This document shows positions 1 through 18,526 of a stretch of DNA of 64,000 nucleotides, piece by piece. This DNA comes from an uncultured virus (IMG/VR IMGVR_UViG_3300042006_000224). Taxonomy: Duplodnaviria > Heunggongvirae > Uroviricota > Caudoviricetes > Schitoviridae. How positions within the stretch are numbered: the stretch's first letter is position 1; every line of letters begins with the position of its first letter. Below the pieces are notes generated by a model, which worked only from the letters and a program-made list of their open reading frames with translations, did no database searches and was not told the DNA's origin. The position numbers and the translations under genes are program-made. The stretch lies in the IMG/VR virus record IMGVR_UViG_3300042006_000224. One strand, 5' to 3'.

Positions 1-2
1 TG

Positions 3-3000
3 AACAAAGATGGCCGCAACTTCCACAAGGGAATCTGGGCTACCGCAAGCCAGAATGAGAAGGATATCGCCAAAGCGAAATGGGACTTCGTGTTCCGTCC
101 GCAAGCGGGCATCACCGGCAAGAATGCTTACCTATCGCGCTTTGCAGCGTTGGGTCTGGCCTCGGCTGAAGTACGCAACGTACTGGCGTTCTCTACGGCG
201 AATCTGGAAACCCCACTGAAGGAACTGCCGTGGGCCAGCCGCCTGACCGAGCTGTTCCGTCGTCTGATGCAACGCCTGTCCTCGTTGATGACCAAGGTCA
301 CCCCGGGCATGGCGGGCAATCAGGCACTGCGTACCCTGGTCGAAGACCTGGTGGATATCGAAGCCAAGCGTAAAGCACGCATGGGCCAAGACAAGCTGGG
401 CTCGCTCGACCAGATCGAGACGGTGCTGACGGCAGCGGGTGAAACCGTGCGCGAGAAAGCGGATGCTTTCGGGCAGTCGAAATTCTTCCGCAACTCCCGT
501 ATCCCGGGCGTTCCGTTTGTGGGTGCAGCGATCTCGACACTGGCCGGCGACCGACTGGACGACGTGCTGGAGCACATCAATACCACCCGCGACGCTTACA
601 TGAAAGGTCGTCAGGGTCTGGCTACTGGACTGCTCAGCGAATGGCGCGGTGTCTATGACTCCCGTCGTCTGGCTGCCGAGCTGTTCAAAGGTGCCAAGGC
701 CATCGAGCAAGAGCGTAAAGCGGTGATCGAGAACACGGCGCAGGCTGTGAACGAGGCCTTCGCCAACCAAGGGCAGGATCTGACCCAGGACCAGCGCGAT
801 GCACTGACCAAGGTGTTCTTGCGCACCAACGCTCAGGCCATCGCCGCGGTGAAAGGTGTGTCCGGGCTGCGGGATCTGATGGAAGATCCGGCGCAAATGG
901 CCGCGTATCGGGCTGATCTGGAAGCTCAGGTCACGGCGATGTCGGGGAATGCCCGGTACATGATCAGCCAGACCAAGGACTTGGCGCACCACAAGGTGAT
1001 CGGGGGTTCGACTTCGGCCAACCTGATGCTGTCGACCGGTAATATCGCGGCCATGTACGGCACCAAGAAAGCTGGGCAGGATGCTCATCTTATTGCTGGT
1101 TTGACGCCGTTGCTGGAGCAGTTGGTGGGTGTGTACGCACTGGCTTACTCCGGTGATGTCGACCTGAACAATGCGAAGCAAGTGCTGCGTACCGAGATGA
1201 ACCGTCAAGACGGTGGCAACGGTATCGAGTTCATGCTGAAGCTGCACACAGGCCTGCAAGCCAAGGCGACCAAGGAGCTGTTCGCTGGTACCGAAGCGCT
1301 GCAACAGACCGGTTATGTGGCCGAGATCCATGACAACAAGATCGAAGTGTTGCTGGTCGATCAACGTGACGTGGAAGCTCACCAGCGCGCTGGGTACACC
1401 GTAGGCACCCGTCTGCAGATGGACCCGAACGTGAAGGCGCTGCAAGGCGGTTCGCGTGTCCTGATGACCCGTCGGGGCTCTGGCCAGAACGCCCTGTTGA
1501 CCGGCGCCATGTCGTTCACCGGAATGAACGCCAAAGGGTCGAGCCCGGTCACTGAAGCGCTGAACATGATGCAGGGCACGCAGACCACGTCGGCTGCCGT
1601 ACGCCAGCAGATTGCAGCGGCCAAAGCCGGGGCAATCGCCGACTTGTTCACCCGGGGTTCGAATTACGACCCACGCAATGCCCAAGCAGGGCACATGGCC
1701 CCCACCCTGGCGCCTGACGGTCGCATAGCTGACTACCGTCACCTGATGGTCGAACACAATCGCGATGTCCTGTTGGACCGCGATAATTCGATGGATCAGG
1801 TGATGGGAGTCATGGCCGGACAGATTGCGGACAAGGTGTCGTCTGCTGCGCAGAACGCGGATGTGGTGCGGTCGATGTACGACCAGTACCGTGCGGACTA
1901 CACGTCGCGCCCAGCTTCGTACTTGCGTGTGGCTGCGGATAGCAATGATGCAACGCTGGCTGAGGCATACCGCCTGCTGCCGGAAAGCACCAAGCGGGAA
2001 ATCAAGAAGGTATGGAAAGAAGACGCGATGTATGTGCCGGCTGACCAAATCGATCTGATTTTTGGCTACCGTAAGTTCAGTTTGACCAATGCGTTCGCTG
2101 CGCTGCCGACTGACCGTAACTTGATGGAAAAAACCCTTGTAGGGATCACTTCTGCCATGTTCGGTGAGAAAGCTGCACTGCGCGTCGGTCAAGCCGAAGA
2201 CATCATGCAAGCACTGGTCAAAGAGATGAAGGACATCCTCGTTGTGAAAAACGTGATGACTTTGGCCGGCAACATCATGTCCAACATGACATTGCTCGCT
2301 TGGGAAGGGGTTCCGCTGCAAAAGGCAATCTCTTCGCACGCAATCGCAATCAAAGGGGCTATCGACTACCGTAAGGATTCGAAACGCCTGATGCAGTTGC
2401 AGCAATCGGTTGAGATCGGCTACTTCGCGGATACTGAAGCGGCTGAGGTGGAAATGGTGGAATTGCGGGATCGTTTGGCGCGTAACCCGATCAAACCGCT
2501 GATTGATGCCGGACTTATGCCGACAATCGTAGAAGACGTTGAAGTTGACGATAATCGCTACACCTACAAGGCTCACTTGGAGCACAAGGTGGAACGGTTC
2601 ACTTCTAAGGTGCCAGCCTGGATGCGTGCAGTCGGTCGTCAGGTCTACATGACTCATGACACCGCAACCTACAAGTTCCTGAGCCAATCGACTCAGTTGT
2701 CCGACTTGGTGTCTCGTTATGCGCTCTATGAGCACGCAACGACTCGCCGGAAAGATCCACTGAGCAAAGCTGATGCATTGCGTCTCGCCGAGGACAGTTT
2801 CGTAAACTACGACCTGCCTTCGCACCGTACCCTACAATATCTCAACGATATGGGTATTGTGATGTTCACCAAGTATTACCTCCGGATTCAGAAGGTAATC
2901 ATGCGTTTGGTGAAAGAGCGTCCTGCACGCGGCCTGATTCTGGTGGCACTGGAACATTACCTGTCTGGTTTGCAGTCGGTACTGGATTCGAGCTGGACGA

Positions 3001-3086
3001 ACAAGATCGGCAACAATCCGCTGCAAGATGGGGCACTTGGTTACCTTGGCTCGTTAAAAGAGCTTCCGGCAATCAAGATGCTCTGA
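3..3086 (+). CDS. Virion-encapsidated RNA polymerase (N4 gp50-like), C-terminal part, 5' truncated by the window
   Basis: Frame is open from base 3 (NKDGRNFHKG...). More than 1000 aa with no Cys seen, Ala-rich, C-terminal 'FVNYDLP...YLNDMG..MFTKYYLRIQK' typical of N4-like vRNAPs. Converges on the replication genes as in N4. Confidence 0.88.
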   Translation, partial: NKDGRNFHKGIWATASQNEKDIAKAKWDFVFRPQAGITGKNAYLSRFAALGLASAEVRNVLAFSTANLETPLKELPWASRLTELFRRLMQRLSSLMTKVTPGMAGNQALRTLVEDLVDIEAKRKARMGQDKLGSLDQIETVLTAAGETVREKADAFGQSKFFRNSRIPGVPFVGAAISTLAGDRLDDVLEHINTTRDAYMKGRQGLATGLLSEWRGVYDSRRLAAELFKGAKAIEQERKAVIENTAQAVNEAFANQGQDLTQDQRDALTKVFLRTNAQAIAAVKGVSGLRDLMEDPAQMAAYRADLEAQVTAMSGNARYMISQTKDLAHHKVIGGSTSANLMLSTGNIAAMYGTKKAGQDAHLIAGLTPLLEQLVGVYALAYSGDVDLNNAKQVLRTEMNRQDGGNGIEFMLKLHTGLQAKATKELFAGTEALQQTGYVAEIHDNKIEVLLVDQRDVEAHQRAGYTVGTRLQMDPNVKALQGGSRVLMTRRGSGQNALLTGAMSFTGMNAKGSSPVTEALNMMQGTQTTSAAVRQQIAAAKAGAIADLFTRGSNYDPRNAQAGHMAPTLAPDGRIADYRHLMVEHNRDVLLDRDNSMDQVMGVMAGQIADKVSSAAQNADVVRSMYDQYRADYTSRPASYLRVAADSNDATLAEAYRLLPESTKREIKKVWKEDAMYVPADQIDLIFGYRKFSLTNAFAALPTDRNLMEKTLVGITSAMFGEKAALRVGQAEDIMQALVKEMKDILVVKNVMTLAGNIMSNMTLLAWEGVPLQKAISSHAIAIKGAIDYRKDSKRLMQLQQSVEIGYFADTEAAEVEMVELRDRLARNPIKPLIDAGLMPTIVEDVEVDDNRYTYKAHLEHKVERFTSKVPAWMRAVGRQVYMTHDTATYKFLSQSTQLSDLVSRYALYEHATTRRKDPLSKADALRLAEDSFVNYDLPSHRTLQYLNDMGIVMFTKYYLRIQKVIMRLVKERPARGLILVALEHYLSGLQSVLDSSWTNKIGNNPLQDGALGYLGSLKELPAIKML

Positions 3087-3087
3087 A

Positions 3088-3121
3088 ATAAAAAAGCCCC
3101 CTAATTTGGGGGCTTTTTCTT
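3088..3121. terminator. Bidirectional rho-independent terminator
   Basis: AAAAAAGCCCCC-TAATTT-GGGGGCTTTTTT between converging genes. Confidence 0.85.
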
Positions 3122-3310
3122 TGCATCGAACACGAACTCTTTGATCGCTGCCCAAACCAGAAAGACAATGAAGACAAGTACGCAGAGCAATGCCCCCAAG
3201 AAGGCAATGATCTTGAACACGTACCCAAACACCACGAATGTCGTGATCAGGGCGAGCAGCGCGCCGATCCCGAAAAATATTCCCAGAATCAGCCGTGCTG
3301 CCCGGATCAA
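3101..3310 (-). CDS. Small membrane protein (2 TM segments)
   Basis: 69 aa, strongly hydrophobic. Confidence 0.7.
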   Translation of the reverse strand: MIRAARLILGIFFGIGALLALITTFVVFGYVFKIIAFLGALLCVLVFIVFLVWAAIKEFVFDAKKKPPN

Positions 3311-3657
3311 TGCCGTACTGGGGATTTGATCATCACGGCTCGCCCGAGGGGGAGGTCGTCGAGGTACAAAGTGCCGGTGGCCGGGTCAATGTGCCAACCT
3401 TTAGGTTGATTCCCGGTAGCTGCAGCAGCCTGGGGTTTCACGTCTTCTGGCGCACCTTTAGATTCACCCGGCGAAGCGTGGCCAGCATTGCCAGCCTGAC
3501 CGGACACTTTCGGTTCTTCGAACAGTTTTGCAGCAGCTTTTGCCAGAGTCGTGGCTTCAGCGCTTTGATTGATGCCATAAAGCATCTTTGCAGCACTTGC
3601 CAGCATATTCGCCGCTTGGGCGTGTGTAAGCAGAGCTTCGTCGCAGATTTGGCACAT
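3307..3657 (-). CDS. Hypothetical protein (starts MCQICDE)
   Basis: ATG at 3657 with AGGA SD upstream; stop overlaps the next start. Confidence 0.7.
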   Translation of the reverse strand: MCQICDEALLTHAQAANMLASAAKMLYGINQSAEATTLAKAAAKLFEEPKVSGQAGNAGHASPGESKGAPEDVKPQAAAATGNQPKGWHIDPATGTLYLDDLPLGRAVMIKSPVRH

Positions 3658-3669
3658 ATTGCATTCCTT

Positions 3670-4560
3670 CTGTTGGTGGGTGTTCTGGAAGTACATCTGC
3701 CGTCGCTTCCCATGGCAACACTCATTCAGAGTGGCAGATGTACCACCAGAACACCATCCAAGTGCAAACCTCTCCGAAGAGTCAGCTTGCGGGGATAATG
3801 TTCCGGGAAAGTTACCAACTTTCAAGTTTATAGGTTATTAGTCACAAACTTGCTCGTTTGTGCATACCGGACTTCGGCGTTCGGTATGTTGTGCTGTGCT
3901 TCGATAACCCCTTCCCATCAGCGGTAAGGGGAACGCAATTGCGGCTAACTTGCTCGCTCGCGTACCACATTTCAATAGATGAATACTTGGGGCTTACTCG
4001 CCCCATGTTTCCTGATTTGTCAGTTAACAATACCCTAGGGGGGTATTGGGGAACACTTTACTCAGCCGGCTGCGCTACATCGCCAGCCTCCTGCCAACGG
4101 CCGGAGTATTCGCAAAGTGTTCCCCAATACCACCTCTACACTTGCCATGTGCAAGCACATCACAGTTACAGAGGGATATTGGGTTCGATCTTATGTTCGA
4201 ACAGACATACCGACTATATGCCAGTCGGGTCAGCAGCCCCTGCCCGGGGTCAGGGTTTAAGAGGCACCTCAGCATTGTTTCTGTACCTGCTGTAGCTAAC
4301 AGCGTTTCTGTGTCCAGAAGAGGTGCCAATTAGGCGGGGTTGTCGCATTGGCCGAGGCCCCACTACGAAATGCTGCGGACACGTACCGGGAACCGGCAAA
4401 CGTATCCTCATCAGCCAACCCCTTAAATCTTTGTAGAGTTTTTCCCAGCAGCTTTTCGCGGTAACAACCGGCGTGGCCACCAAGCCAAGGTACGATCCTT
4501 GGTTTCAGACATACAACAGTTTGGTCTGGTACGAGGCTTTTACAGTGCCAATGTGCGCAA
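3670..4560 (-). ncRNA. Candidate large structured non-coding RNA
   Basis: ~900 nt with no credible ORF and many nested stems, including a perfect 18-bp stem (4042-4059/4114-4131). cUUCGg loop and several G-U pairs on the minus strand. Confidence 0.5.
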
Positions 4561-4582
4561 CTTCCTCTGCTTTTTTACTGGT

Positions 4583-4786
4583 TTAGTCCAGTTCCGAACG
4601 CATCTCGCTTCTAGGAGCCCAACCGTTGCTGGTTTTCACCATGCAGCCGATTGAGCCGCTGAAGCGCACATTGCGTTCAGTTTGGTAGCCGTACCATTCA
4701 CACTTGCTCCAGCCGATGCCGTAGCCGATGGCCACGATAACGAGTACCAGAACGAGGATGGGCAGTACGACTTTACCGTTACGCAC
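4583..4786 (-). CDS. Small membrane-anchored protein
   Basis: N-terminal TM helix; adjacent to the TerB-like gene. Confidence 0.65.
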   Translation of the reverse strand: MRNGKVVLPILVLVLVIVAIGYGIGWSKCEWYGYQTERNVRFSGSIGCMVKTSNGWAPRSEMRSELD

Positions 4787-5233
4787 TCAGGCGCCTTTGC
4801 GGATTTCGAAGTGTTCTTCGCTGAGGCGATAGCCCAGCTCACGCGCGACTTCTTCGATCACCTTGCGCTCGGCCGGCTCGATTTCACCGTCCGACTTTGC
4901 GATGGCCAGGATGTTGAGGACCACGTCTTCGACGTGTTCATCGTTGCCTTGGATGTCGCGCAGCTCACGCAGGATTTTGCTACGGCCGACCAGGAAGTCG
5001 CCATCCAGCAGATCGCTGAAACGACGAATGGTCTTGCCGATTTCGGCGCCGAAGTGCTTCAGGTTTTCGTTACCGGAGATGAGCTTTTCGAGCTTGTTCA
5101 GCTCGTCCTTCTCGATGTCACCATCAGCAGCGGCGACCAGCAGGCCACCGCCAACGATGGCTTCCATCAGGTCACGGTTTTCAACTTTCTTGGCGCCACG
5201 GAACAGCTTGCCAGCGAATTTACCGAACATCAT
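4787..5233 (-). CDS. TerB-family (tellurite-resistance-like) protein
   Basis: Duplicated 'LVAAADGDIEKDE' and 'AIAKSDGEIEPAERKVI' motifs. Confidence 0.8.
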   Translation of the reverse strand: MMFGKFAGKLFRGAKKVENRDLMEAIVGGGLLVAAADGDIEKDELNKLEKLISGNENLKHFGAEIGKTIRRFSDLLDGDFLVGRSKILRELRDIQGNDEHVEDVVLNILAIAKSDGEIEPAERKVIEEVARELGYRLSEEHFEIRKGA

Positions 5234-5700
5234 TCATTCCTTATGAAAGCATCCCGTTCGGCTAAAAGCCGGGTCGGGGCTGCATCAATTCTGGTGCGCA
5301 TGTCTTGGGCACGGGCTACGCCCGCTTCCCATTCTGTGCGATTGAAGTCGTCACCTATATTAAAGGCGTTGACCAGTTGTGACGGGTTCGGGTGGGCAAG
5401 TGCCTGCTCCAAACCAAGGTTGTAAGCTGCGGTTGTCGCCGACGGTACCGGCTCCGGTGAAGTGCCGGTCAGTTCGTACTGGGTCATGAAGCCCACATAG
5501 GCCACGTTGACCAACACAGCCCCTTCTCCCAACTTGCGCTGCTCTTTAGCCGCGGTCAGTTGAGGGATGGTGAGGCTGCGCTTGTCGGACCAGACGTACG
5601 CACTGGCCGGCATATAAGAGCCGACCTGAGGGACAGACCACACCGCAAGGTACCAATGGCGCTTGCGGGCACTCGGGTCTTGTGACGGGTGCTGATACAT
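5230..5700 (-). CDS. Hypothetical protein
   Basis: 156-aa ORF in operon, ATGA overlap. Confidence 0.7.
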   Translation of the reverse strand: MYQHPSQDPSARKRHWYLAVWSVPQVGSYMPASAYVWSDKRSLTIPQLTAAKEQRKLGEGAVLVNVAYVGFMTQYELTGTSPEPVPSATTAAYNLGLEQALAHPNPSQLVNAFNIGDDFNRTEWEAGVARAQDMRTRIDAAPTRLLAERDAFIRNE

Positions 5701-5742
5701 GTTCTACCTCTGGTTTGCCCCAGTTGCCTGGGGCGTGCAGGA

Positions 5743-6105
5743 TCAGTCGAACAGGTTGTCGTCGTCACCACCACCAGCGGTTTCCAGCTCAGCAGTGGTA
5801 GTCACAGGCTCGACCACTGGCGCAACATGCGCAGGCTCTTCGGCAACCGCGACTGGTGCAGTGGCCTGGGCTTCCGCAACCGGCGCAGAGGTGGTCGCGG
5901 TCGGGGTCACGGCGGATTGCTTTGGGGCTTCAGCCACCACCACAACCGGTGCTTCGGTGTCCAGCACGCAGGTCAGTTCTTTGGTGCCACGCTTGAAAGC
6001 GAACTCGGCGGTGACAACGTTCGGATCGAACGCGGTCATGCCTTGAGCTTGCAGGTAAGCGCACAGTGCTTTGGTAACGTCGTTGTGAGTCAGAGTCAGT
6101 TGCAT
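5743..6105 (-). CDS. Hypothetical protein with Ala/Pro/Thr linker and acidic tail
   Basis: 120 aa ending DDDNLFD. Confidence 0.7.
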   Translation of the reverse strand: MQLTLTHNDVTKALCAYLQAQGMTAFDPNVVTAEFAFKRGTKELTCVLDTEAPVVVVAEAPKQSAVTPTATTSAPVAEAQATAPVAVAEEPAHVAPVVEPVTTTAELETAGGGDDDNLFD

Positions 6106-6665
6106 GTTTGCGTTCCTTTATGGAATTGAATGAGTTGTTTGTACTGATTCGTCAATAAACCAGCATAGATCGCGCCCACGGCATCAGCCATGTGCTCAGC
6201 GTCACCCAAATGGATGTCGCCATTGGACTTGCGCGGCCAAGGCGCTTCCGGGTGTTGCTTCACTGCCCAGTCGATCATTTGCTTCTTGGTAGCCGTGCGG
6301 CTGCCATGAGCGGCAAGCTTGACCTCGTTGGGCGTTACTTCAATGAATTGCGCGGAGGCGCGGAGGCTTCCCAGTATTCCAATACAGATCCCAGAACAGA
6401 GAGAGGCTCGGGCGCTTTGACTGCCTTGCGGAATCTCGGCGAAGATCAAGTTCGCAGCCAGGAAAGGCATCACGCCCTCATATAGCTGGTTTGCCGTGCT
6501 CAAGTCTTGTGAGTTCTGGCGGACCTGTTTGCCTTCGAGCGGATTGCTACGCACAACTCGAAGGGTTTTGATGGTCAGCACTCCGGTGTCGATATCGATC
6601 GAACCACCGGCAATTCCCCAGTTTCTGCTGGACGGGTCAAACCCAGCGATACTGAGGCGAGCCAT
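6096..6665 (-). CDS. RuvC-like Holliday junction resolvase
   Basis: 'GFDPSSRNWG', 'AEIPQGSQ', 'KKQMI', 'EHMADA' motifs. Confidence 0.8.
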   Translation of the reverse strand: MARLSIAGFDPSSRNWGIAGGSIDIDTGVLTIKTLRVVRSNPLEGKQVRQNSQDLSTANQLYEGVMPFLAANLIFAEIPQGSQSARASLCSGICIGILGSLRASAQFIEVTPNEVKLAAHGSRTATKKQMIDWAVKQHPEAPWPRKSNGDIHLGDAEHMADAVGAIYAGLLTNQYKQLIQFHKGTQTCN

Positions 6666-7216
6666 TACACGCCAGCGCGTGAAAGGCGACGCTGAAGCAC
6701 GGCAACATAGTCTTTCATCAAGCCATGTTGCTCACGCAGGTCAGCGATCTCTTCGATGGACAAATCCATCCAGTCGAGGACACCAGCATCCAACTTCACA
6801 AGGAATTCGGAAAGACCCATCAGACGAGCGGCAACCTGATACATCTCGGTGATAACACGCTGCACATGGTCAGGAAGCTCACGCTGTTCCTGAGTCAGTG
6901 GGCGATTACCGCGGTGGATGTCTTCAGCCAGCATAAAGCCGGCCAGCGGCCACAGTTGGTCACGCGCATCGCGCATTGCCAATTGTTTGGCCAACTCTTC
7001 GTCGTAGTTCTCCGGAGAGACGCTACCCAGGTTCTTGCCGACGACCGTGAGGCCGTTATGCAGGGTCAGGACGCAGAGCAGGATCGAAGGGTCGATCTTG
7101 ATTAGCTCAGTGGTCTTGATCATGGCATCCAGCGCGGCCGGTGTAACACGCGGCGCAGTGGTGAGGCCTTTGGCTTGAATCTTAGATTCCAGCGCTTGTT
7201 CAGCGGATACAGACAT
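6665..7216 (-). CDS. Gp49-like (PF13876-type) domain fused to a helical C-terminal domain; candidate anti-defence nucleotide sponge
   Basis: 'APRVTP...CVLTLHNGLTVVG...VSPENYDEELAKQLA...LWPLAGF' followed by 'HVQRVITE...EQHGLMKDYVAVLQRRL'; AGGAG SD before the ATG at 7216. Confidence 0.65.
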   Translation of the reverse strand: MSVSAEQALESKIQAKGLTTAPRVTPAALDAMIKTTELIKIDPSILLCVLTLHNGLTVVGKNLGSVSPENYDEELAKQLAMRDARDQLWPLAGFMLAEDIHRGNRPLTQEQRELPDHVQRVITEMYQVAARLMGLSEFLVKLDAGVLDWMDLSIEEIADLREQHGLMKDYVAVLQRRLSRAGV

Positions 7217-7260
7217 GGACAGCTCCTGAAAGGGGCCGGTTACCCGACCCATGGTGGTGT

Positions 7261-8043
7261 TCAGTCGAACAACGAATCGACTTCGGCGCCGGAAGCGTCG
7301 GTTGGGGTACCAGCAGGGCCGGCACCGCCAGCTTCTGGGACCAGATTTTCCTTCTTGACCTTGTCGATGACCTTACCGGCGTTGGCTTCGAGCCATTTCG
7401 GGTAGAAGTCAGCAACCGGAGTGGAACCGGACTGCTTGGCTGCACGCAGCTCAGCAATGGTGCACTTGTTGTCAGGGTAGAAGATTTTGCCGATTTCGTT
7501 GGTGAAACGGGTGATCGGTGCGCCAGTTGCGTCACAAACCGGCAGGTAGTCGTTGCCTACCTTTTTGGTTTTGTTTTCTTCGACCTTCAGCAGACCGAGG
7601 ATGAACTTCTTGCCGATCAGCTCGACGGCCATTGGCACTTCAGTCGGCACGTCGGTTTTGGTGTCGAAGTTGCGCAGCTTGACGATTTTGGTTTCGAAGG
7701 TCAGCGCGTTCAGCTCTTTCTTGGCGCAGAACATCGCGATGGCGTTCATGTTGTTGAAGCCAGGCAGGTAGGACTTCTTGCCGTCACGTTCGTAGTACGG
7801 CTTGTTGCCTTTGGCATCGCCCGAGGTGACCCACTCGGTGAACTTGAACTTGCGACCGTCCGGACCTTGAACTTCAAGGTTCATGGAACCGGCGCCGCCT
7901 TTCGACTTGCCTGCATAAGCAGACAGCACGGTGACTTCATAGGCGTTGGAATCCCAGACGAAGCTGCCGCCCAAGCGGTCGCTGTCGGTTTCGATGGATT
8001 CGTTGGTGGTGTTAGCGGTGTTGGCAAAAGGGTTGAGGCTCAT
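7261..8043 (-). CDS. ssb: Single-stranded DNA-binding protein (N4 gp45-like)
   Basis: 'DRLGG', 'YLPGF' motifs, acidic SLFD tail, conserved position. Confidence 0.8.
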   Translation of the reverse strand: MSLNPFANTANTTNESIETDSDRLGGSFVWDSNAYEVTVLSAYAGKSKGGAGSMNLEVQGPDGRKFKFTEWVTSGDAKGNKPYYERDGKKSYLPGFNNMNAIAMFCAKKELNALTFETKIVKLRNFDTKTDVPTEVPMAVELIGKKFILGLLKVEENKTKKVGNDYLPVCDATGAPITRFTNEIGKIFYPDNKCTIAELRAAKQSGSTPVADFYPKWLEANAGKVIDKVKKENLVPEAGGAGPAGTPTDASGAEVDSLFD

Positions 8044-8105
8044 GGTGTTGCTCCAAAATTATGAGAAGGAAATTCACAACAGCCCACGGAGGGGGCCACA
8101 GTTAC

Positions 8106-8819
8106 TCAGTTATAGTAGGAATCGAGACGGTCGATGACCATCTGGATGTCGTTGTCGATAAACGTTTCGTTGTCGCCCCAGAGCATCATCGGGCCACGGA
8201 TACGGGTGTTGATCGTGTCCTTGGTGACCTGAGTCTGGAAGACGTGTTTGAAGCCGACGACTTTCTCGCGGTCGGTGATCTTCAGCAGGTCGTTCTCTTC
8301 GGTGAGGTCGTCCAACTTGATCTTCTGGCACATCAGCACCATGGAGAAGTAGGCTTCGATGCCTTGGTTCTTCAGGGAGCCGGCGACCGGGATCGCGGTT
8401 TCCATGACCATGGCGGTTTCGTTGTACACGTCGAGGACGTGAGCCAGGAAGATGACCTTCTTGGAGGACTTGGCGACATCGACCTGCATGGTCGAGCGGA
8501 AGAATTCAGCGAAGTTGCCCCACGCGGCACGGCCGTCAACGGCGGTGCGAACGTACTGGCTGATGTACATATCAAGCCAGAAGGTCAAGGTGTCAACGAT
8601 GATGACCTTGATGTGGTCCTGCTTCTCAGCCCACGCGAAAGCTTCTTTCACTTGGTTTGGGTTGGTCACCGTCTTTTGGGTGAACTTCGCCGGGAAAGGC
8701 AGTCGCTTGCCCGCTTCACAGTTCAAATACAGAACCGATTCGGGATCGCGCAAATTGCGCAGGGAAGCAGACTTGCCACTGCCCGACTTGCCGCAAATGA
8801 GCGCCAAATGTTCGTTCAT
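8106..8819 (-). CDS. AAA/Sak4-like ATPase (N4 gp44-like)
   Basis: Walker A GKSGSGKS; Walker B IIVD. Confidence 0.8.
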   Translation of the reverse strand: MNEHLALICGKSGSGKSASLRNLRDPESVLYLNCEAGKRLPFPAKFTQKTVTNPNQVKEAFAWAEKQDHIKVIIVDTLTFWLDMYISQYVRTAVDGRAAWGNFAEFFRSTMQVDVAKSSKKVIFLAHVLDVYNETAMVMETAIPVAGSLKNQGIEAYFSMVLMCQKIKLDDLTEENDLLKITDREKVVGFKHVFQTQVTKDTINTRIRGPMMLWGDNETFIDNDIQMVIDRLDSYYN

Positions 8820-8873
8820 AGGAATACTCCTGAATGAGATCACAAAAGCCCCGGGACGGGGCCAGTGTGAAGG

Positions 8874-11030
8874 TTAAGGGCGGGCTGCCAGCTCTTTACC
8901 GACAGTGACCATGATAGAGCCCAGGATCTCGGCTTCGGACAGCTTGTCGGCCAACTTATCGTTGAGCGACGTGACGCAGTCCTTGATCTCCGCCCAGTTC
9001 TTCCCGGCTTCGATCAACAAACGGGCATAGCGGTGCAGCATGACATTACGGTTGCCATCACCCGTGTTGTTGATGATCCAGCGTTCCAGATTGTCCATTT
9101 GCTGCTGGGAACCCAGCCGCTGAAGACGTTCTTCGTTTTTACTGGTTTTCGGGATGAAGGGCAGGACATCAAACAGCTCGCCCTCGGTTTGCTCGAAGTG
9201 AGCGCCATGCGACATCCACTTCTTGCTCCGGTGAGTACAGGACTCATCCACTTCGAACGGCAGGGATTCCAGCACGTTCTTCATGAATTCCTTGTATTCC
9301 TTCGCGTCCATTTGCAGGACGTAGTTCGTCGGAAGAACAATGCGGAACCGGTTTGCATCGTCGGTGTGACGCTTGGTCGTGTAGTAGATCGCCGAATAAT
9401 CTTTCATCAGCATCTTCGCCGTGGACAAGTTCATCGTCCCGTCGATATCCAACACGATCATGTTGAAGCCGGGGATACAGGTATCCTCGGTACGATGGCC
9501 GCCGTGAACATGGTGATTAAGCCAGTGCAGGTCAGTTCCTGTGACAAGACGTTCCAGTTGAGTCCATGGGGCAGTCTTGTTTGCGTAACCATGCGCCGGG
9601 TGTTCACCGGCACCGCCACGGGCATACGACACCACCATCTTGGTCAGGTCAGTGACCTTCAGCTTCTCGCCGCGCAGGAACTCAATCCCGTCGGTGAAAG
9701 CCTTCTTGATGATGACGTTGTTCTTGTAGCCCCAGGCGATGGCCATCTTGACCATGTCGGCCCGCGATGCCTGACTGCCCTTGTAATAGGGCAAGTCTTG
9801 CATCAGGTCCGGTTCGGTCACTTCCGTGCCACAGTTGCCCAGGTAGTTCGCCAGCTTGACGTATGGGCGTTCACGAGACAGCAGAAGCTCGAAGGCCTTA
9901 CCGCTTTCTTCAGCCAGTCGAACTGCTTGGTAGAAATGCGTCTCCGTCAGCTCCGGGGAGCCGTCGATGAATGCATAGGCACCAGCAGCCTTCAGGGCTT
10001 TGAAATATCGGTGAGAGATTTCCGCTTTGCGTTGTTCTTCGTGTTCGGGCAGGGCATCGGCTAAACGCTCGCAGTCGATCTTGTACTGGATCACCAGCAA
10101 GCTGGTTTCCTTGGTCATGGTCAACACAGTATTCATGTTGTGCGAATCAGCCAAGTAACCCAGTTTTTCGCTGAAGTTTTCCACGAACGTGGACGAAACC
10201 TTGTTCGTCATGCGGTCGTAGATTTCTTCAGCCGACAGGGTCAGATCGCGGGTGCTTTCTTTGCCGTAGCTGAAGAAACAGCGGCGAGCGTAGCCGGTAT
10301 CGAGCAATGAGATCAGCTCGTCTTCCGTCTTGCCACCATCGAGCAATTTCGACGGTGTACCGAACATCATGAGGTTCGTTGGCGTGTTGCCGTCGATTTC
10401 CTCGTGACGGACGTTCTCGGCAGTCACTTTGGTGATCTTCTGGCGAATGCCGCCCATATCGAACAATTCCAGCAGTGTTGTGAGCACTTCGGAACTGGAC
10501 GACAGGTTGGAACCGATTTCGTCGATGATCAGGTTGACTGCGCCCGCATCTGCGAGCAACAGCTTGTGACGCATCTGCTTTACCGCAGCCGGGGTACCGG
10601 AGTCGAAGCTATAAACCAGAGGACCAAGGGAAGCGAACTCCTTCTTGATTTTCTCCAGCTCGAAGTCGTATTCCGTCGAATCCCGGGATGAACGCCGCAG
10701 CGCCAGCTTTTCGAGGTGCGGTTCAGCAGTGAACGGGAAGTTTTCGAGGAAACGGGTACGGAATTGGTTGGTTATCTCCTTTTCCAGAATGTTCGTCGAG
10801 AAGCCTTTACCGGCACCGGATGTGGCGAGGTTCAGCGCGTACATGTTGACCGGGATGTCACCCCGATCATGGGTGCGGATCAATACCCGCATCTGTGAGG
10901 CAATCATGCACAGGTGGAACGTCGTCAACACACGGAAGAACAAATGGTTCGAACTCTGTGTCTTTTCACACAGAATGCGCACCACGTCCTCCACTTCGGG
11001 GTTATACGACATGTCTTCGACAGCTTTCAT
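8874..11030 (-). CDS. DNA primase (N4 gp43-like)
   Basis: 718 aa, 'SGAGKG' P-loop, 'LDIDG' AEP motif, C-terminal 'GNRN' PriCT-like. Confidence 0.8.
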   Translation of the reverse strand: MKAVEDMSYNPEVEDVVRILCEKTQSSNHLFFRVLTTFHLCMIASQMRVLIRTHDRGDIPVNMYALNLATSGAGKGFSTNILEKEITNQFRTRFLENFPFTAEPHLEKLALRRSSRDSTEYDFELEKIKKEFASLGPLVYSFDSGTPAAVKQMRHKLLLADAGAVNLIIDEIGSNLSSSSEVLTTLLELFDMGGIRQKITKVTAENVRHEEIDGNTPTNLMMFGTPSKLLDGGKTEDELISLLDTGYARRCFFSYGKESTRDLTLSAEEIYDRMTNKVSSTFVENFSEKLGYLADSHNMNTVLTMTKETSLLVIQYKIDCERLADALPEHEEQRKAEISHRYFKALKAAGAYAFIDGSPELTETHFYQAVRLAEESGKAFELLLSRERPYVKLANYLGNCGTEVTEPDLMQDLPYYKGSQASRADMVKMAIAWGYKNNVIIKKAFTDGIEFLRGEKLKVTDLTKMVVSYARGGAGEHPAHGYANKTAPWTQLERLVTGTDLHWLNHHVHGGHRTEDTCIPGFNMIVLDIDGTMNLSTAKMLMKDYSAIYYTTKRHTDDANRFRIVLPTNYVLQMDAKEYKEFMKNVLESLPFEVDESCTHRSKKWMSHGAHFEQTEGELFDVLPFIPKTSKNEERLQRLGSQQQMDNLERWIINNTGDGNRNVMLHRYARLLIEAGKNWAEIKDCVTSLNDKLADKLSEAEILGSIMVTVGKELAARP

Positions 11031-11048
11031 TGATTTCTCCGTGTTTGA

Positions 11049-12032
11049 CTACAGGACCAGATCGCCGCACGCAATGAGTGCGTCTTTCTGTTTGCATGCG
11101 AGGAAGCCCGCGCAATATTTGCATCCTGTGACACCGCCGCGTTTGGTGACTACGACGCCACCCTTTGTGGCGACAAGAAGATCAGCATCGGCTTTGTTGT
11201 CAAAGTTTTTGGTAGATCGGGCACCGGGTTCGTGTGCTTTCTCCGGTTTGGCGAAATAACGATAGGTGTCCGGCTTTCTCCACAGATCCTTGTCGGAACA
11301 GGGAGGCATATCTTCTTCCGGCGCATGCTCAAGGTCAATGAGCTGCTGAACCTTGCCTTCGACATAGACTTGCGTCTCTTCGAGCGACAGGAGCTGCAGC
11401 TTGCGCGTATGCATGCGGGCAGGTGGGTAATTGTCCGGGTTCATGTTGCGATCCCGGCCATTCCAGTCGGTGAACTGGAATGTGAGGTTCATCCAGTCTT
11501 TCGTTACCAATTCTGGGTTGAGCCAGCGGTACATGCTGCCTTGCAGGACGTAATTCTCGAAGTCTGCGTTGAGGTACTTCCATACCGACGTATTCTTCAA
11601 ATCCTCGACGGCACCGTCACCGATGAAGTCAAACTTCCCGGATACGGTGATGCCAAGCACGTCCTTCTTGCTGCGGATTTCGGTGTACACCGGAATGATG
11701 CCACCGGCCGCAACTTCTTCTGCAGATGGGTTAACCCGGACCTTGCGCGCAACGCCGGGAGGATTACCCAGAGCAATCAGGGTATCGACCAGCTTGGGCG
11801 ACTTCCACGCTGCCTCAAAGGCGTCATGGATCGCGGTACCGTTACTGCTCGGGATCATGTCCGCAACGTCCTGAGACAGCATCCCAGGCGGTACACGGCG
11901 GGCCAAGATCACTTGCTTCACTGGTTTCAGCAGTGTGGTGACCGACAGGCCGGCTTCTTCCCGGTCGTACGTCTCATGCGCGAGGTAAACCTGTGCAAAG
12001 AGTGACAAACCAGTGTTGTTGGTGAATTTCAT
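11049..12032 (-). CDS. PD-(D/E)XK exonuclease (N4 gp42-like)
   Basis: 'GTAIH', 'GKFD...EDLK', C-terminal CxxC..C. Confidence 0.75.
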   Translation of the reverse strand: MKFTNNTGLSLFAQVYLAHETYDREEAGLSVTTLLKPVKQVILARRVPPGMLSQDVADMIPSSNGTAIHDAFEAAWKSPKLVDTLIALGNPPGVARKVRVNPSAEEVAAGGIIPVYTEIRSKKDVLGITVSGKFDFIGDGAVEDLKNTSVWKYLNADFENYVLQGSMYRWLNPELVTKDWMNLTFQFTDWNGRDRNMNPDNYPPARMHTRKLQLLSLEETQVYVEGKVQQLIDLEHAPEEDMPPCSDKDLWRKPDTYRYFAKPEKAHEPGARSTKNFDNKADADLLVATKGGVVVTKRGGVTGCKYCAGFLACKQKDALIACGDLVL

Positions 12033-12409
12033 GCTTGATGCTCCGGTTGTTCGGCCAGCCACGCCCCAAGGGTGCGGTGGGCTTCTTTGAGGTCGTGGTA
12101 GACGGATTTGCCACCAGTGCGACAGCCAGGCACCAGAAGCTTCTTGCGTGCGTGATACAGGCGCGAGGAAGGCAACGGGAATAGATCATCCACCCGATAG
12201 GTGTCGATGGCCCGCCAGTGCTCCGGCAGAGGCTTCCAATAGGCTGGAAAGTCCTTAGCCAGTTGCTCAGCTTCGGTATCGACTTGTCGGGTCTTAGCGG
12301 CAAAAAGCCCGTAATTCACCAACCCACCTACGTTATTGACGCGATAGATGTGATCTTCGTGCAAGACGTTGCCGTCCGTGTCTCGAATGTGCTTCATGGG
12401 GTCGATCAT
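12029..12409 (-). CDS. Hypothetical phage protein (possibly DUF3310-like)
   Basis: 'IDTYRV...HARKKLL..G.R..KS...DLKEA'. Confidence 0.55.
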   Translation of the reverse strand: MIDPMKHIRDTDGNVLHEDHIYRVNNVGGLVNYGLFAAKTRQVDTEAEQLAKDFPAYWKPLPEHWRAIDTYRVDDLFPLPSSRLYHARKKLLVPGCRTGGKSVYHDLKEAHRTLGAWLAEQPEHQA

Positions 12410-12867
12410 GCTGCATCCTTCTGTTGTTTAAGTCGCTGGCGTAGTTCGGCCAGTGTTGGGGTATGACGCACCAGTACACGAGGTGTCAGGTGCTTTGTCA
12501 TGCGGATAATGACCAGCTTGGCTGCAGCCATGTACCGGCGAGCTTGGCGGTCAGACAGGTTCAACACACAAGCCAGATGCTCACTGGAGATGTTCTCCAT
12601 GTACGAGAGCACTGCGAATAGGCGTGTCGGTGACAAGTTACCGCCTGAGCCGTGATCCAGCGTGCAGACCCCCGTGATGATGTTGTCGATCAGCACGTTC
12701 TCGTTTGCGTAGCGGAAGAAGGCGAAGCGTTGGTGGTGTGGGTTGTGCAAGAAGCGCACACGGTTGGAGCTGGGGTGCATGTCACGGTGTAAGTGCATGT
12801 TCACGCGATCCGTTCCAGATTGGCCCAATGAAGCGGCCAGCGTTGGGTAGCTATCCTGCAAGATCAT
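12406..12867 (-). CDS. Putative HTH DNA-binding protein
   Basis: 'SEHLACVLNLSDRQARRYM' resembles an HTH; AGGA SD. Confidence 0.5.
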   Translation of the reverse strand: MILQDSYPTLAASLGQSGTDRVNMHLHRDMHPSSNRVRFLHNPHHQRFAFFRYANENVLIDNIITGVCTLDHGSGGNLSPTRLFAVLSYMENISSEHLACVLNLSDRQARRYMAAAKLVIIRMTKHLTPRVLVRHTPTLAELRQRLKQQKDAA

Positions 12868-12914
12868 CGGATTCCTTGGTTAAAAAATGGTCAATCGAAA
12901 CGGACCCATATATA

Positions 12915-13100
12915 GAAGAGGGGACTCACCTCCCCGATTTGCCTCAGCAATCGCAAAGGCTCCCGGAGGGAGCAACGTCACCTCATCCCCACCAAACCCC
13001 CACCGGGGCACGACACACCTAGCCGGTGCAGTGCCGCTAGGGCCGCGCAGCGGACCCGACGCGAGCACGGAGTCCGGCGTAGGTGGGGAGTGACCAGGAA
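12915..13100. other. GC-rich multi-hairpin non-coding element
   Basis: GCTCCC-GGA-GGGAGC, CCGC-GCA-GCGG, CCTAGC/GCTAGG, enclosing CCCCACC/GGTGGGG. Confidence 0.55.
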
Positions 13101-13117
13101 AAGAAAAACTAATTAAA

Positions 13118-13516
13118 TCAAAACTTTAAAAACGATTTTTTGCCGAGAACCAAAGCCAAGGGATCAGTTACCCCTTCGTGGCTGGGACCGTCTTGCAAAA
13201 TAAATGGTGTTGTAGGTACGAGTTCTCGCATTTTCTCGCTTAAAACTGGGCGTAGCAGCGGCAGAGCGCCCCTTACCATGTCTGCACCTAGAAGCGCAGC
13301 CAAATCACATGTCAATACGCTTTCCATGGAAATTGGCGCGATAGTGAACATTTGCAGGGCAATCGGTCTATGCAAAGAAGTCCATTGCGTTTTCTTGCAA
13401 TCTATGAAGTGACTTCTAAGGCGATCACGTAGCTTGTGCGTATGCCCTACATACCAGCAGCTATGCTCCAAGCGAAGTATGTATAGCCAGCCTGGATGCC
13501 CGTCTTTACTACTCAT
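13118..13516 (-). CDS. Free-standing GIY-YIG endonuclease
   Basis: 'LYILRL...WYVGHT...RL..H'; lower GC; AGGAG SD. Confidence 0.75.
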   Translation of the reverse strand: MSSKDGHPGWLYILRLEHSCWYVGHTHKLRDRLRSHFIDCKKTQWTSLHRPIALQMFTIAPISMESVLTCDLAALLGADMVRGALPLLRPVLSEKMRELVPTTPFILQDGPSHEGVTDPLALVLGKKSFLKF

Positions 13517-13798
13517 TGGGGAACTCCTGTACAAAAAGTGATCAGACAAAGAAAAACCCCCAGAGAAATGGAGGTTTTTGGTCTTGAGCACTTTTTAACC
13601 AATTATAGGTGATGGATTCTGCTGCTGACCGGCCGCGATAGTAGTTTGTGGAATAGACGTACGTCAAGTGTCGCAAACCCCTGTCGTCTTACCTATCCCG
13701 GCGCGGTGTCGCTGCGCGAACCGCTTGGGTAGGACGACGACTGGTGTTTGCTAGGGAAAAGGGGTGTAGAATCGGCCAACTTATGTTAAGGGGGCTTT

Positions 13799-15079
13799 AT
13801 GAGCGAAGTTTGTTCCATCACCGCATCCGGTGACTATGTTTGTGGTACCGGGGGTTGGGGTGGCCCAAAGCCCGGAGATCCGAACACATCTGACCTATTG
13901 CTGCATGCAGTGCCTGCATTTGGCGGTATTGACCTGACTTGGACGTGGCCTGACACCTTTCCTGAAGCTGTAGCCTACACCACGATCTATCGTGGTCTTT
14001 CGGCTGACTTCAACGGTGCAGCGGTGCATGTCGCAGCAGCATCCGGTAATTTCTTCTACGACCGTATCGAATACGGTGTTGTGACCCAGTTCTACTACTG
14101 GATCATCGTTCACTCCGTTTACGGCACACCTTCGCGATTAATCGGCCCGGCCTGGGCAACTGCCAAGCCTCGCATCGAAGAGATGATCGAAGAGCTGACC
14201 GGGAAGATTGACGCTGGTGTTCTGGCAGTTTCGTTGAAATCTGAAATCGCCCGCATCGAATTGAACCACCTGAACATCACGCAGGAGCAATTGGATCGCC
14301 AAGGCGAAGATGATGCACTTGCGGCACAAATCACTGTGGTTGGTGCGTATTCCGACGAGACTCGCGCACTTCTGCAAACTGAAGTGCTTGCGCGTACGTC
14401 TTCGAACGAAGCATTCGTTTCGACGGTGAACACGCTGTGGGCTGAAGTGAACGGCAACATTGCCGCGGTGCAGACTCAAATCACTGCCGTTGTAGACGAT
14501 CAACAAGCTCTTGCACAGCAACTCACCACCTTGGAAACCCAGTTCGGTGAAGACTTGGCTCAAGTCTCACAAACGCTGGAGACTCAGATTGACGTAGTGG
14601 ATGGCAAGGTTGTGGCCATCGGTGCCTTGTACACGGCAAAAGTCAACGTGAACGGTTTAATTGGTGGCTTCGGTATCTATAACGATGGTACCGAGGTGGA
14701 GGCCGGCTTTGACGTGGATCGCTTCTGGATCGGTCGCACTGGCGCCAACAAGCGCAAGCCTTTCATTGTTCAGAACGATGTGGTGTACATCGACGATGCT
14801 GCGATCAACAAGCTGACCTTCAGCAAGCTGCGTGATGAATCAGGCAGCTTCGTTGTGGCCAATGGCAAGGTGAAGGCACAGTACATTGAAGTGGACACTT
14901 TGGTGGTGCGGGCAGCGCAATCGAACAACTATGTAAATGCCTCCACCGGTTGGTCGTTGGCTGCCAACGGTGACTTCCAAATCAACGGTCGTGGTGGTGC
15001 CGGGCGCTTGCTGATTCAAAGCAGCGGCGTTTACGGGTATCACTCCAACGGTGTCATGGCCTTTGCGTTGAGTATCTAA
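13799..15079 (+). CDS. Tail tip / host-specificity protein (J-like C-terminal, DUF1983-like)
   Basis: Fn3-like N-terminus, coiled coil, 'YTAKVNVNGLIGGFG...DRFWI...PFIV'. Confidence 0.7.
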   Translation: MSEVCSITASGDYVCGTGGWGGPKPGDPNTSDLLLHAVPAFGGIDLTWTWPDTFPEAVAYTTIYRGLSADFNGAAVHVAAASGNFFYDRIEYGVVTQFYYWIIVHSVYGTPSRLIGPAWATAKPRIEEMIEELTGKIDAGVLAVSLKSEIARIELNHLNITQEQLDRQGEDDALAAQITVVGAYSDETRALLQTEVLARTSSNEAFVSTVNTLWAEVNGNIAAVQTQITAVVDDQQALAQQLTTLETQFGEDLAQVSQTLETQIDVVDGKVVAIGALYTAKVNVNGLIGGFGIYNDGTEVEAGFDVDRFWIGRTGANKRKPFIVQNDVVYIDDAAINKLTFSKLRDESGSFVVANGKVKAQYIEVDTLVVRAAQSNNYVNASTGWSLAANGDFQINGRGGAGRLLIQSSGVYGYHSNGVMAFALSI

Positions 15080-15080
15080 T

Positions 15081-15383
15081 ATGGCTGGTTTACAGACGTG
15101 GGATAGCGCCGGGCGCCTGACTGTTGATATGACCATGCATATCAGCCAGATGCAGGGGTATGTGGATACCGGGGGTGGCAATGGGGCTATCGGCATCCCG
15201 GGACCGCCCGGGGGCAAGACTCAGTTCTTTATTGTGGTGCCCTTGCAGGACATGCAGAACGAGAAAGGTAAACGCCCCGGGGTGACCCTTTCCGGTGGTG
15301 TGCTGTCATGGGCCTACTCCTACGCTACCAATGGCTGGGGCTACTTTTCGGCGAACTGCCGCATTTTCTACGGGTATTACTGA
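15081..15383 (+). CDS. Tail-associated protein
   Basis: 'GLQTWDSAGRL' motif common in genes following J-like genes. Confidence 0.6.
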   Translation: MAGLQTWDSAGRLTVDMTMHISQMQGYVDTGGGNGAIGIPGPPGGKTQFFIVVPLQDMQNEKGKRPGVTLSGGVLSWAYSYATNGWGYFSANCRIFYGYY

Positions 15384-16276
15384 TGTCCAATCTGCTGGTT
15401 TACAAAGACACCGGGGAGCTGCTGTTTGACACCAACTTGATCAGCTATGGCTTGATCAAGTCCGGGTACATGGTTTATCTCGAATCATGGATACGTCGTG
15501 AGTACCTGAACAACAACCAAGACCCCAATAACGGGGCTAACTGGTCGCCAGTGCAAGTTCACTATGATCCGACCCACACTGACACGTTGCACGGGTTTAC
15601 CGTGTGGGGCTGGATCTCGCCGATCTGTTTCATCACGGGGCCAGGGTGCTTGAACGGTACCCGCATAAATGGGGATGGTTCCATGACGTTCCTGTATTCC
15701 AATGCCGGTACCTCCACCAAGTTCTTCTGCTTCGACCTGATGGCCGACAACTTAGGGGGTTCGACCTTCCTGAAGACCTGGGACACCACTGGACGCATCA
15801 CATTCAACTCGTTGCAGCCTCCATTAAACGTCGTGGCTGCCTACCAAGCGCCGGGGCCGGGGAGTGTTGATCAGTTTGGGCGTTACAAGGAAACCTATGC
15901 CGGTGGGTACACACAAAGTGAGCCGGAGCTGGGTCCGGCGTCTCCTTGGCGACGTAAGCGAGCAACCTCACGTGTTGACATCGGATTAAGCGGGGTTGAG
16001 TACGCTGTTTACTTGCCTTGGAGTCGGTCGGTCATATTCAACGACTTCAACGATTTCAACGGTTTCTTCAACGCATCTCAGTACGGCGGGCAAGAAGGTG
16101 CCTATGGGCGGTTTGGGGGTATCTCTTTCCTGTTTGGCGCTTCTGCCGGGACTACCAGTGGCAGTCTTAACACGGCGGGCTACAGTGCTGGCATTTCCTT
16201 CAGCAATCTACCAACTGATCGGTATCCGGTAGCTTTGATCATTCATACGGCTGGTTTGATCTTTCCGTATAACTGA
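15383..16276 (+). CDS. Tail-associated protein
   Basis: TGATG overlap; repeated 'D.TG.L.F' motifs. Confidence 0.6.
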   Translation: MSNLLVYKDTGELLFDTNLISYGLIKSGYMVYLESWIRREYLNNNQDPNNGANWSPVQVHYDPTHTDTLHGFTVWGWISPICFITGPGCLNGTRINGDGSMTFLYSNAGTSTKFFCFDLMADNLGGSTFLKTWDTTGRITFNSLQPPLNVVAAYQAPGPGSVDQFGRYKETYAGGYTQSEPELGPASPWRRKRATSRVDIGLSGVEYAVYLPWSRSVIFNDFNDFNGFFNASQYGGQEGAYGRFGGISFLFGASAGTTSGSLNTAGYSAGISFSNLPTDRYPVALIIHTAGLIFPYN

Positions 16277-16325
16277 TCCACAGCATGGCGGACGTAACCC
16301 GTCAATAATGATAAAGTTCGCCCTA

Positions 16326-16350
16326 CCGCCCACACTCGGGCGGTTTTTTA
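16326..16350 (+). terminator. Rho-independent terminator
   Basis: ACCGCCC-ACACTC-GGGCGGT followed by a T-run. Confidence 0.7.
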
Positions 16351-16363
16351 TAGGAGACAGCCA

Positions 16364-18496: not shown

Positions 18497-18526
18497 CTAA
18501 TAACAATCGCCCTGAAAAGGGCGGTT

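Follow-up and report, generated by a model that had tools for sequence, protein, structure and literature searches.

In phage T4, tRNAs are co-transcribed with stable RNAs that are not tRNAs (species 1 and 2), GOLLD and ROOL RNAs occur in a phage context in association with tRNA genes, and the early genes of T7 have RNase III processing hairpins between them. Phage non-coding RNAs are still poorly charted, and here we describe a structured stretch free of open reading frames (ORFs) at 3658-4582 (925 nt, minus strand) of a 64,000-nt piece of the uncultured virus record IMGVR_UViG_3300042006_000224. The whole piece, hereafter the window, covers the greater part of the genome of an N4-like podophage (Schitoviridae), a soil Pseudomonas phage, whose closest named relative is phCDa (Pseudomonas phage, genus Shizishanvirus, host P. 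fluorescens; megablast coverage of 33% of window 1-20000 at 78% identity). The structured stretch, hereafter the gap, lies between a 67-aa gene and a gene equivalent to phCDa gp05, and phCDa has a 1012-nt gap without annotation at the equivalent place. Since the gp05-like ATG is at 3657 and the 67-aa ORF is a real gene, the gap can be delimited to 3658-4582. About twenty local hairpins and three-way junctions, strung together in two parts, make up the gap, which is a non-coding locus that probably works through RNA structure.

A counterpart occupies the same genomic slot in phage LUZ7. According to Putzeys et al. (2022; PMC9163698), the LUZ7 gap between orf69 and orf70 is heavily transcribed late in infection and yields several abundant non-coding RNAs of <250 nt (sRNA1-3); one of these has no start site of its own and is probably processed. 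The correspondence was drawn from gene order: in LUZ7, exonuclease, primase, Sak4, SSB, orf66, a gp46-like gene, orf68 and orf69 are followed by the gap, orf70-72 and a convergent virion RNA polymerase (vRNAP) gene. The LUZ7 gap is also ORF-free and strongly structured (folding z-score -6.15; the Litunavirus gap is less so, at -3.81), and its long Y-shaped hairpin adjoins the ribosome-binding site of orf70 as the last hairpin of our gap, M16, adjoins the gp05-like start. However, the LUZ7 gap measures 398 nt vs. 925 nt in the window, and the LUZ7 and Litunavirus gaps carry, by eye, a TTGACT...-type promoter-like site and an intrinsic terminator, neither of which was found in the window gap. 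The downstream LUZ7 protein (gp70) is also without BLASTP similarity to the window's gp05-like protein. The same slot thus holds, in a different N4-like genus than that of LUZ7, a much larger RNA element under clear selection.

Conserved, covarying hairpins of the gap

A profile of the gp05-like protein identified ten viral contigs, including the window's own contig and phCDa, and a 19-mer from the last hairpin was found in the same ten. An exact 31-mer from the gap matched in nine viral contigs, and an eleventh contig from a later scan was a truncated copy. Within the INPHARED phage collection, phCDa was the sole carrier. Our literature searches returned no paper describing the locus, and its contig identifiers were not found in the searched part of the IMG/VR candidate-RNA catalogue of 8,495 entries (PMC10690425), where parts of the locus may be listed anonymously. 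The 19-mer also occurred elsewhere (3 metagenome and 7 genome contigs), where 19-26 nt alone were shared and the flanks folded differently; since ~9 matches are expected in ~1.2e12 bases, given one two-fold-degenerate position, these were set aside as chance.

Folded as RNA, the minus strand of the gap had a minimum free energy of -372.5 kcal/mol, far better than its dinucleotide shuffles (-297.2 +/- 8.6 kcal/mol, 20 shuffles; z -8.72), and the plus strand reached -354.7 kcal/mol (z -6.59). Considering that two 925-nt coding stretches of the same window gave z-scores of -3.16 and -4.07, the folding excess of the gap, about twice as extreme, is real but stands over a non-zero background. A first-pass annotation of the window, made from the sequence alone, had listed the helices of this region, and an inverted-repeat search and local folds recovered all of them. 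The nested helices 3679-3688/3746-3755 and 3691-3701/3733-3743 lie in 29-nt arms (3673-3701/3733-3761, 86% complementary), and the perfect 18-bp stem 4042-4059/4114-4131 is the core of 21-nt arms (4039-4059/4114-4134, 95% complementary). The multi-way helix 4263-4270/4320-4327 belongs to arms 4258-4270/4320-4332 with two sub-hairpins inside, and 4336-4342/4416-4422, with its inner stems, closes a region (4336-4422) that folds as a three-way junction. The short hairpins near 3843, 3863, 3908, 4141, 4210 and 4485 and the minus-strand cUUCGg loop (3772-3781) were likewise seen in local folds.

A motif matrix over the ten sequences divided the gap into a constant 3' domain and a mosaic 5' domain. 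The constant domain always lies beside gp05, and its modules keep one order (E-core, F scaffold, G hairpins, AU-rich linker, M14, M15, M16) and a near-equal distance from the gp05 start in all ten sequences. Its features are as follows.

3673-4232, minus: constant 3' domain, a chain of local hairpins, collinear in 10/10 sequences
3673-3761, minus: M16, an 89-nt Y-shaped long hairpin with stems of 10 + 11 bp, two apical hairpins and the invariant GAGUGUUGCCAUGGGAAGC
3764-3790, minus: M15 hairpin, its tip of the cUUCGg type, two of its G-U pairs invariant
3807-3823, minus: M14 hairpin, 6-7 bp with a 3-5-nt loop, stem covarying from AU to UA or GC
3826-3841, minus: A/U-rich single-stranded linker CUAAUAACCUAUAAAC, nearly invariant, one copy in the window
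3843-3888, minus: two hairpins with the conserved loops GAGCAA and CCGAAGUC, stems covarying
3909-4004, minus: three hairpins (CCCCUU/AAGGGG; tip GC(R)AGU(N)AGC; GGGGC-GAGUAA-GCCCC), stems covarying
4042-4131, minus: F scaffold, a 20-bp stem GUAUUGG.../...CCAAURC (fold z -7.4) with variable tip cores of ~45 nt
4133-4174, minus: M10 hairpin, in the window, L012 and L013 only
4175-4209, minus: E-core, 35 nt, near-invariant in the clade, its 31-mer exact in 9/10; hairpin GUUCGA-ACAUAAGA-UCGAAC
4204-4255, minus: M8 and M7 hairpins, reaching over the border to the 5' domain; M7 GC-rich with CCCUGACCCCGGGCAGGG, in 7/10

Between the window and its distant relatives, the last 190 nt of the gap were 76-90% identical, and the first 138 nt of gp05 were 58-65% identical in the same pairs; the gap RNA is thus more conserved than gp05. 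In the alignment of the last 125 nt (A5, 7 distinct rows), the 42 consensus pairs were formed in 99.7% of cells, and 7 of them were altered on both sides. None of 500 column shuffles matched the observed pairing, double changes or covariation score (four of five measures), and slid controls, in which partners were moved by 1-3 columns, were 39-50% paired with no double changes. For the whole 3' 575 nt (A6, consensus by RNAalifold), compensatory changes were found at 37 of 110 consensus pairs, and alignments A3 and A4 showed them at 9 of 51 and 10 of 23 pairs, respectively. Stems vary in these alignments and loops stay constant, i.e., the GAGYAA-type hexaloops, CCGAAGUC and the 19-mer of M16. 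The comparison of homologues suggested by the first-pass annotation thus revealed a conserved structure with many compensatory changes.

All 110 pairs of A6 fall in local hairpins, save one 2-bp contact, and no long-range helix covaries. Since all conserved helices are local, the gap RNA is a chain of modules and not one fold. This bears on the idea that the gap encodes a single large ornate RNA of the GOLLD or ROOL kind, folding, and perhaps multimerizing, as a whole. Its length (560-925 nt), its very many helices, its phage location and its association with tRNA genes are all as in GOLLD and ROOL. However, the locus is limited to one small phage clade, its modules are arranged like beads on a string, close relatives have gained, lost or relocated modules, and covariance models gave no support. 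A cmscan of the whole window against Rfam had no match at gathering scores, and at E<=10 the region 3400-4900 had a single, meaningless match of 20 bits to mir-4860 (cut-off 100). Because there was no Rfam match, the gap is not a GOLLD, a ROOL, a ribozyme or a tRNA; the Rfam hammerhead, twister, pistol and hatchet models were likewise without matches. We therefore regard the single ornate RNA, one of the two options offered by the first-pass annotation, as very improbable. The local pairs of the constant domain and the shifting of modules among relatives agree better with its other option, small RNAs or decoys in a cluster.

Two resemblances within the constant domain were also seen. A covariance model of M15-M16 weakly matched M10 plus the F scaffold (window 4033-4160, minus; 15 bits, E 0.16), which hints that these two units, each a small hairpin followed by a long GGUG...CACC stem, are ancient duplicates. 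In addition, CCCAAUAUC, with which the E-core invariably ends at its 3' side (4175-4183), is similar to the F scaffold's 3' arm, CCCCAAUACC (4122-4131), and both are able to pair with GGUAUUGGGG (4042-4050). This alternative pairing is chosen by the local folds of L012 and L013 and, on these predicted folds, may act as a structural switch.

Strand preference and non-coding character

The minus strand, i.e., the sense strand of the flanking genes, is favoured as the RNA strand, as the first-pass annotation had proposed from its G-U pairs. Alifold of A6 gave -133.8 kcal/mol with 110 pairs in gene sense (minus) vs. -109.0 kcal/mol with 96 pairs for the complement. At mostly Watson-Crick pairs of A6, minority states were G-U in 37 cases and A-C in 10, and G-U still prevailed (24 vs. 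13) when pairs predicted on the antisense strand were counted. M15 has its two invariant G-U pairs on the minus strand, and the sense local fold was more stable in 8 of 10 sequences.

These counts also bear on whether selection acts on the DNA itself, with the gap as a set of nested palindromic mobile elements, recombination hot spots, a replication origin or a protein-binding array. Such a role would suit the long perfect inverted repeats (18-21 bp), the good folding of both strands, modules that are swapped and nested in each other's loops, and the near-invariant E-core, which holds a perfect 10-bp palindrome. Moreover, DNA hairpins serve as promoters for N4-like polymerases, as stated in two reports (PMC9163698, PMC3715699). 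The helices of the gap, though, are much longer than the N4/LUZ7 promoter hairpins, are branched and contain sense-strand G-U pairs, and G-U mismatches in the sense strand are 2-4 times as frequent as A-C. Pairing is kept through different sequences on both arms (the 37 of 110 pairs above), the loops being the conserved part, and no second copy of any gap module was found elsewhere in the 64-kb window. No short GGA-loop hairpin of the promoter type occurs in the gap, whereas four occur elsewhere in the window. Taken together, we consider a DNA-level element quite unlikely.

The absence of a credible ORF, which the first-pass annotation had noticed, held up on comparison with the relatives. The minus strand of the gap has ATG-initiated ORFs of 53, 66 and 54 aa, none with a ribosome-binding site, and in the relatives neither their starts nor their frames persist, the ORFs being broken or frame-shifted there. 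None of six gap ORFs tested matched a PHROG at E<=0.1. Substitutions between the window and its relatives fall evenly over codon positions in the gap (e.g., 9/7/10 and 25/25/32 with L016), unlike those in the first 46 codons of gp05, where third positions prevail (e.g., 14/11/25 with L016). One frame is open over -330..-180 in several relatives, and tiny genes are frequent in this part of N4-like genomes, so that a gap filled with unannotated small protein genes had to be considered. Nevertheless, the covarying stems would impose radical amino-acid changes on any such proteins and, with neither start codons nor frames conserved, we find this explanation extremely unlikely.

Exchangeable modules and the link to tRNAs

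Upstream of the constant domain, the gap is a mosaic of modules that some relatives have in place, some have elsewhere and some lack, namely M1-M5, the B linker, T73 (a tRNA-shaped module of 73 nt), the Fc-core and the D-core. In the window, the following were recognized.

4233-4582, minus: mosaic 5' domain, modules present, absent or moved among relatives
4258-4332, minus: D module, a closing stem and an inner hairpin between two ACAGAAAC motifs
4333-4422, minus: M5 three-way junction, an acceptor-like stem of 7 bp stacked with an arm of 5 bp, then G-CC
4425-4442, minus: linker AAAACUCUACAAAGAUUU, conserved in 4/10 relatives, one copy in the window
4444-4570, minus: hairpins M4, M3 (CCAAGG-AUCGUA-CCUUGG), M2 and M1, in the variable domain

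Exchange extends into the F scaffold of the constant domain. The first 7 bp of its stem are constant, the next ~12 bp take at least five forms that differ in sequence but are fully complementary, and its tip carries the Fc-core in the window, L012, L013 and phCDa, the D-core in L014, L015, L019 and L020, and a third core in L016 and L017. The D-core, known in eight copies with covarying closing and inner stems, occurs either as its own hairpin or as the scaffold tip; in the window it forms its own hairpin 200 nt upstream of the scaffold that bears it in four relatives. Contigs from rhizosphere metagenomes add more such exchanges; one of them, otherwise near-identical to the window, has 4040-4111 swapped for 71 other letters. 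At least 29% of the sequence words of the locus were present in each of 18 metagenome runs. A D-core pattern search returned two extra contigs, both rejected as ACAGAT tandem repeats, and an M5 pattern search found the window's own contig and that of L017 only. A hammerhead ribozyme was considered for M5 and dismissed: CUGAUGAG is present, but there is no GAAA after the second stem.

ARAGORN found no tRNA gene in the window, in line with the first-pass annotation, which had seen no cloverleaf, and the Rfam tRNA model had no match at E<=10 in 3400-4900. The locus nevertheless shares with phage tRNA islands the gain and loss of cassettes and the presence of tRNAs in or beside the locus of relatives, and the predicted folds of M5 and T73 resemble an acceptor plus T-arm geometry. 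T73 has an arm of 5 bp and a 7-nt loop at tRNA positions 49-65, where the T-loop is not canonical. In a metagenome variant, the sequence from 4334 onward becomes a canonical T-arm followed by an acceptor 3' strand in the slot of M5, and the same N-CC-UAAUUGG trailer follows the 3' end of that tRNA and the M5 of the window. With relaxed thresholds only, ARAGORN reported a tRNA-Thr-like gene of 98-100 nt in L019, L020 and L176, not in the window. Unlike tRNA islands, the window has no canonical tRNA, and most modules and the whole constant domain are without tRNA features. The Fc-core was tried as a tRNA D-arm and abandoned, the pattern being too degenerate (>119 matches) and none of 24 checked having a tRNA.

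Other tRNA traces were noted around the locus. At L001:4556-4583 (minus), inside the phCDa gap, the canonical T-arm GGGGG-UUCGAUU-CCCUC stands isolated: GGCAUCC-G-CCA comes after it, but a 5' half to match is missing, and from its sequence this looks like the remnant of a tRNA 3' half. A tRNA-Arg(TCT) or tRNA-Leu(AAG) lies on the gp05 strand at L016:3057-3130, L017:3087-3160 and L020:3068-3151, ~550-650 nt downstream of the gp05-like start, in the place that the 69-aa gene takes in the window. In N4-like phages of other genera, the equivalent junction holds three tRNAs (Zuri) and two tRNAs (coliphage SP5M). In SP5M (an Escherichia phage), L044:7250-8940 is an ORF-poor stretch of 1.7 kb with two Rfam-level tRNAs, one of them annotated, and its fold shows further T-arm and CCA-like sequences.

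At this locus, a conserved domain is joined to an exchangeable cassette domain linked to tRNA genes. Conceivably, the cassette array could be an RNA counterpart of an anti-defence island: the GUAUUGG.../...CCAAUAC scaffold and its sister stems would show interchangeable ~45-nt cores, with tRNA-derived modules beside them, recombination among co-circulating rhizosphere phages would shuffle the cassettes, and the processed RNAs would decoy host defences that target RNA or tRNA, or RNA-binding proteins. We think this unlikely, and offer it as a tentative idea. If the modules are indeed protein decoys, the idea of counter-defence by tRNA islands would extend to RNAs that are not tRNAs.

Proposed processing, possible cis action and genomic setting

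We propose, at about an even chance, that the gap is an array of processed structured RNAs that doubles as the leader of gp05. The array would be transcribed by read-through out of the upstream genes. Host RNase III might then cut the helices of 20-25 bp, RNase E the conserved A/U-rich linkers, and RNase P/Z the tRNA-like modules. The small RNAs so released would be stable, and host or phage proteins could bind the conserved loops and cores that they carry on covarying stems, which would make these RNAs decoys or sponges. M16 would stay behind as the protective 5' end of the gp05 message. The RNase III hairpins between T7 early genes offer a likeness, i.e., long, slightly interrupted hairpins of 20-25 bp between operon genes, one of them directly before a ribosome-binding site; those of the gap, however, are far more numerous and branched, and have conserved loops and cores.

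The main rival, which is compatible with a processed array, makes the gap purely a cis-acting leader or intercistronic spacer of the gp05-gp06 message, in which the hairpins set stability, processing or translation of the downstream gene, gp05 may exert feedback, and there is no trans-acting RNA. The constant domain always stands beside gp05 and is more conserved than gp05 itself, M16 ends 16 nt ahead of the gp05-like ATG in 10/10 relatives, and in LUZ7 orf70 has a long Y-shaped hairpin immediately ahead of its ribosome-binding site. On the other hand, 560-925 nt and ~20 hairpins are well beyond the needs of known leaders, the folds leave the ribosome-binding site free, and the 5' half is a mosaic with tRNA-like cassettes in it. 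Since conserved cores shift by 200-350 nt without loss, a position-dependent cis role is also argued against. Overall, we judge a purely cis-acting gap to be somewhat unlikely.

Several observations weigh against the processed-array reading. The fixed 16-nt spacing suits a purely cis-acting leader equally well. The coding controls themselves reach z-scores of -3 to -4, the plus strand of the gap also folds well (z -6.59), and for two of ten sequences (L019 and L020) local folding is stronger on the antisense strand. A 264-nt contig over 4428-4684 came from a run labelled RNA-Seq, but as that run is flagged as probable DNA it does not count as evidence of transcription. Because by sequence there are only about six independent lineages, the covariation statistics rest on few events, and on the fifth A5 measure, further pair types, 102 of 500 shuffles reached the observed value. 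No processing site, promoter, terminator or binding partner was identified for the gap, no sigma-70-like site was found in 3000-8200, and a whole-window scan for N4-type hairpin promoters with a GGA loop found none inside the gap. Finally, the M15-M16 covariance model found nothing in LUZ7, a Litunavirus, Zuri, SP5M or Horatius (best LUZ7 match 9.2 bits, E 4.5, elsewhere in the locus). The link between the window and LUZ7 is therefore one of position and kind only.

A search of the gap against the window with blastn-short, for antisense targets, returned the gap's own arms and chance matches of 13-14 nt only. With a single copy each in the window, neither the conserved linkers nor M7 count as recurrent promoter motifs. 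GC-rich hairpins with a short perfect stem (5-8 bp) and a loop of 3-4 nt number 35 in the window, with none in 3087-4921. Four perfect hairpins, GC-rich, with 6-7 bp and a GGA triloop, occur on the plus strand at 8848-8862, 12959-12973, 36772-36786 and 39683-39699, i.e., on the template strand of minus-strand genes. The first of these, in the primase-Sak4 intergenic space, is the nearest upstream of the gap, and from their sequences all four look like hairpin promoters of the N4/LUZ7 type. For experiments, the locus provides defined, testable units, namely the E-core, the D-core, the scaffold with its swapped tips and the tRNA-like M5, and phCDa is available as a cultured relative.

The setting of the gap was mapped with PHROG and Pfam scans, which gave the following genes.

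about 51.6 to 43 kb, minus: small early genes
between the small early genes and exonuclease, minus: two RNAPII subunits, then DNA polymerase
11052-12062, minus: exonuclease
8877-11030, minus: primase
8109-8843, minus: Sak4
7264-8043, minus: SSB
between SSB and TerB, minus: gp49/66-family gene, then RuvC/gp46-like gene
4790-5233, minus: TerB
4583-4786, minus: 67-aa gene, upstream of the gap (phrog_27356, E 5e-22)
3658-4582, minus: the gap, ORF-free and structured, between the 67-aa gene and the gp05-like gene
3307-3657, minus: gp05-like gene, 116 aa, equivalent to phCDa gp05 and always 3' of the constant domain
after the gp05-like gene, minus: 69-aa gene (gp06 in gene order)
ending at 3086, plus: vRNAP gene, convergent with the minus-strand block

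Since the vRNAP gene ends at 3086 and is convergent, the replication-gene block has the gap at its distal end, and the gap is not in the early region at the genome end. This slot is syntenic with the LUZ7 gap and with tRNA islands of other N4-like phages. The gp05-like gene has an AGGAA ribosome-binding site before its ATG; its product belongs to no Pfam or PHROG family, and its AlphaFold model has a mean predicted local distance difference test (pLDDT) score of 59. The GenBank record of phCDa opens inside the SSB homologue (window 7000-7815 vs. L001:6725-7546); the record is cut or permuted there, and its gp01 is not at a physical genome end. Lastly, the motif AAACCAGTRAA (e.g., at 4574, 9138, 21115, 45291 and 56404) has eight minus-strand copies and a single plus-strand copy in the window, some of them lying within genes.

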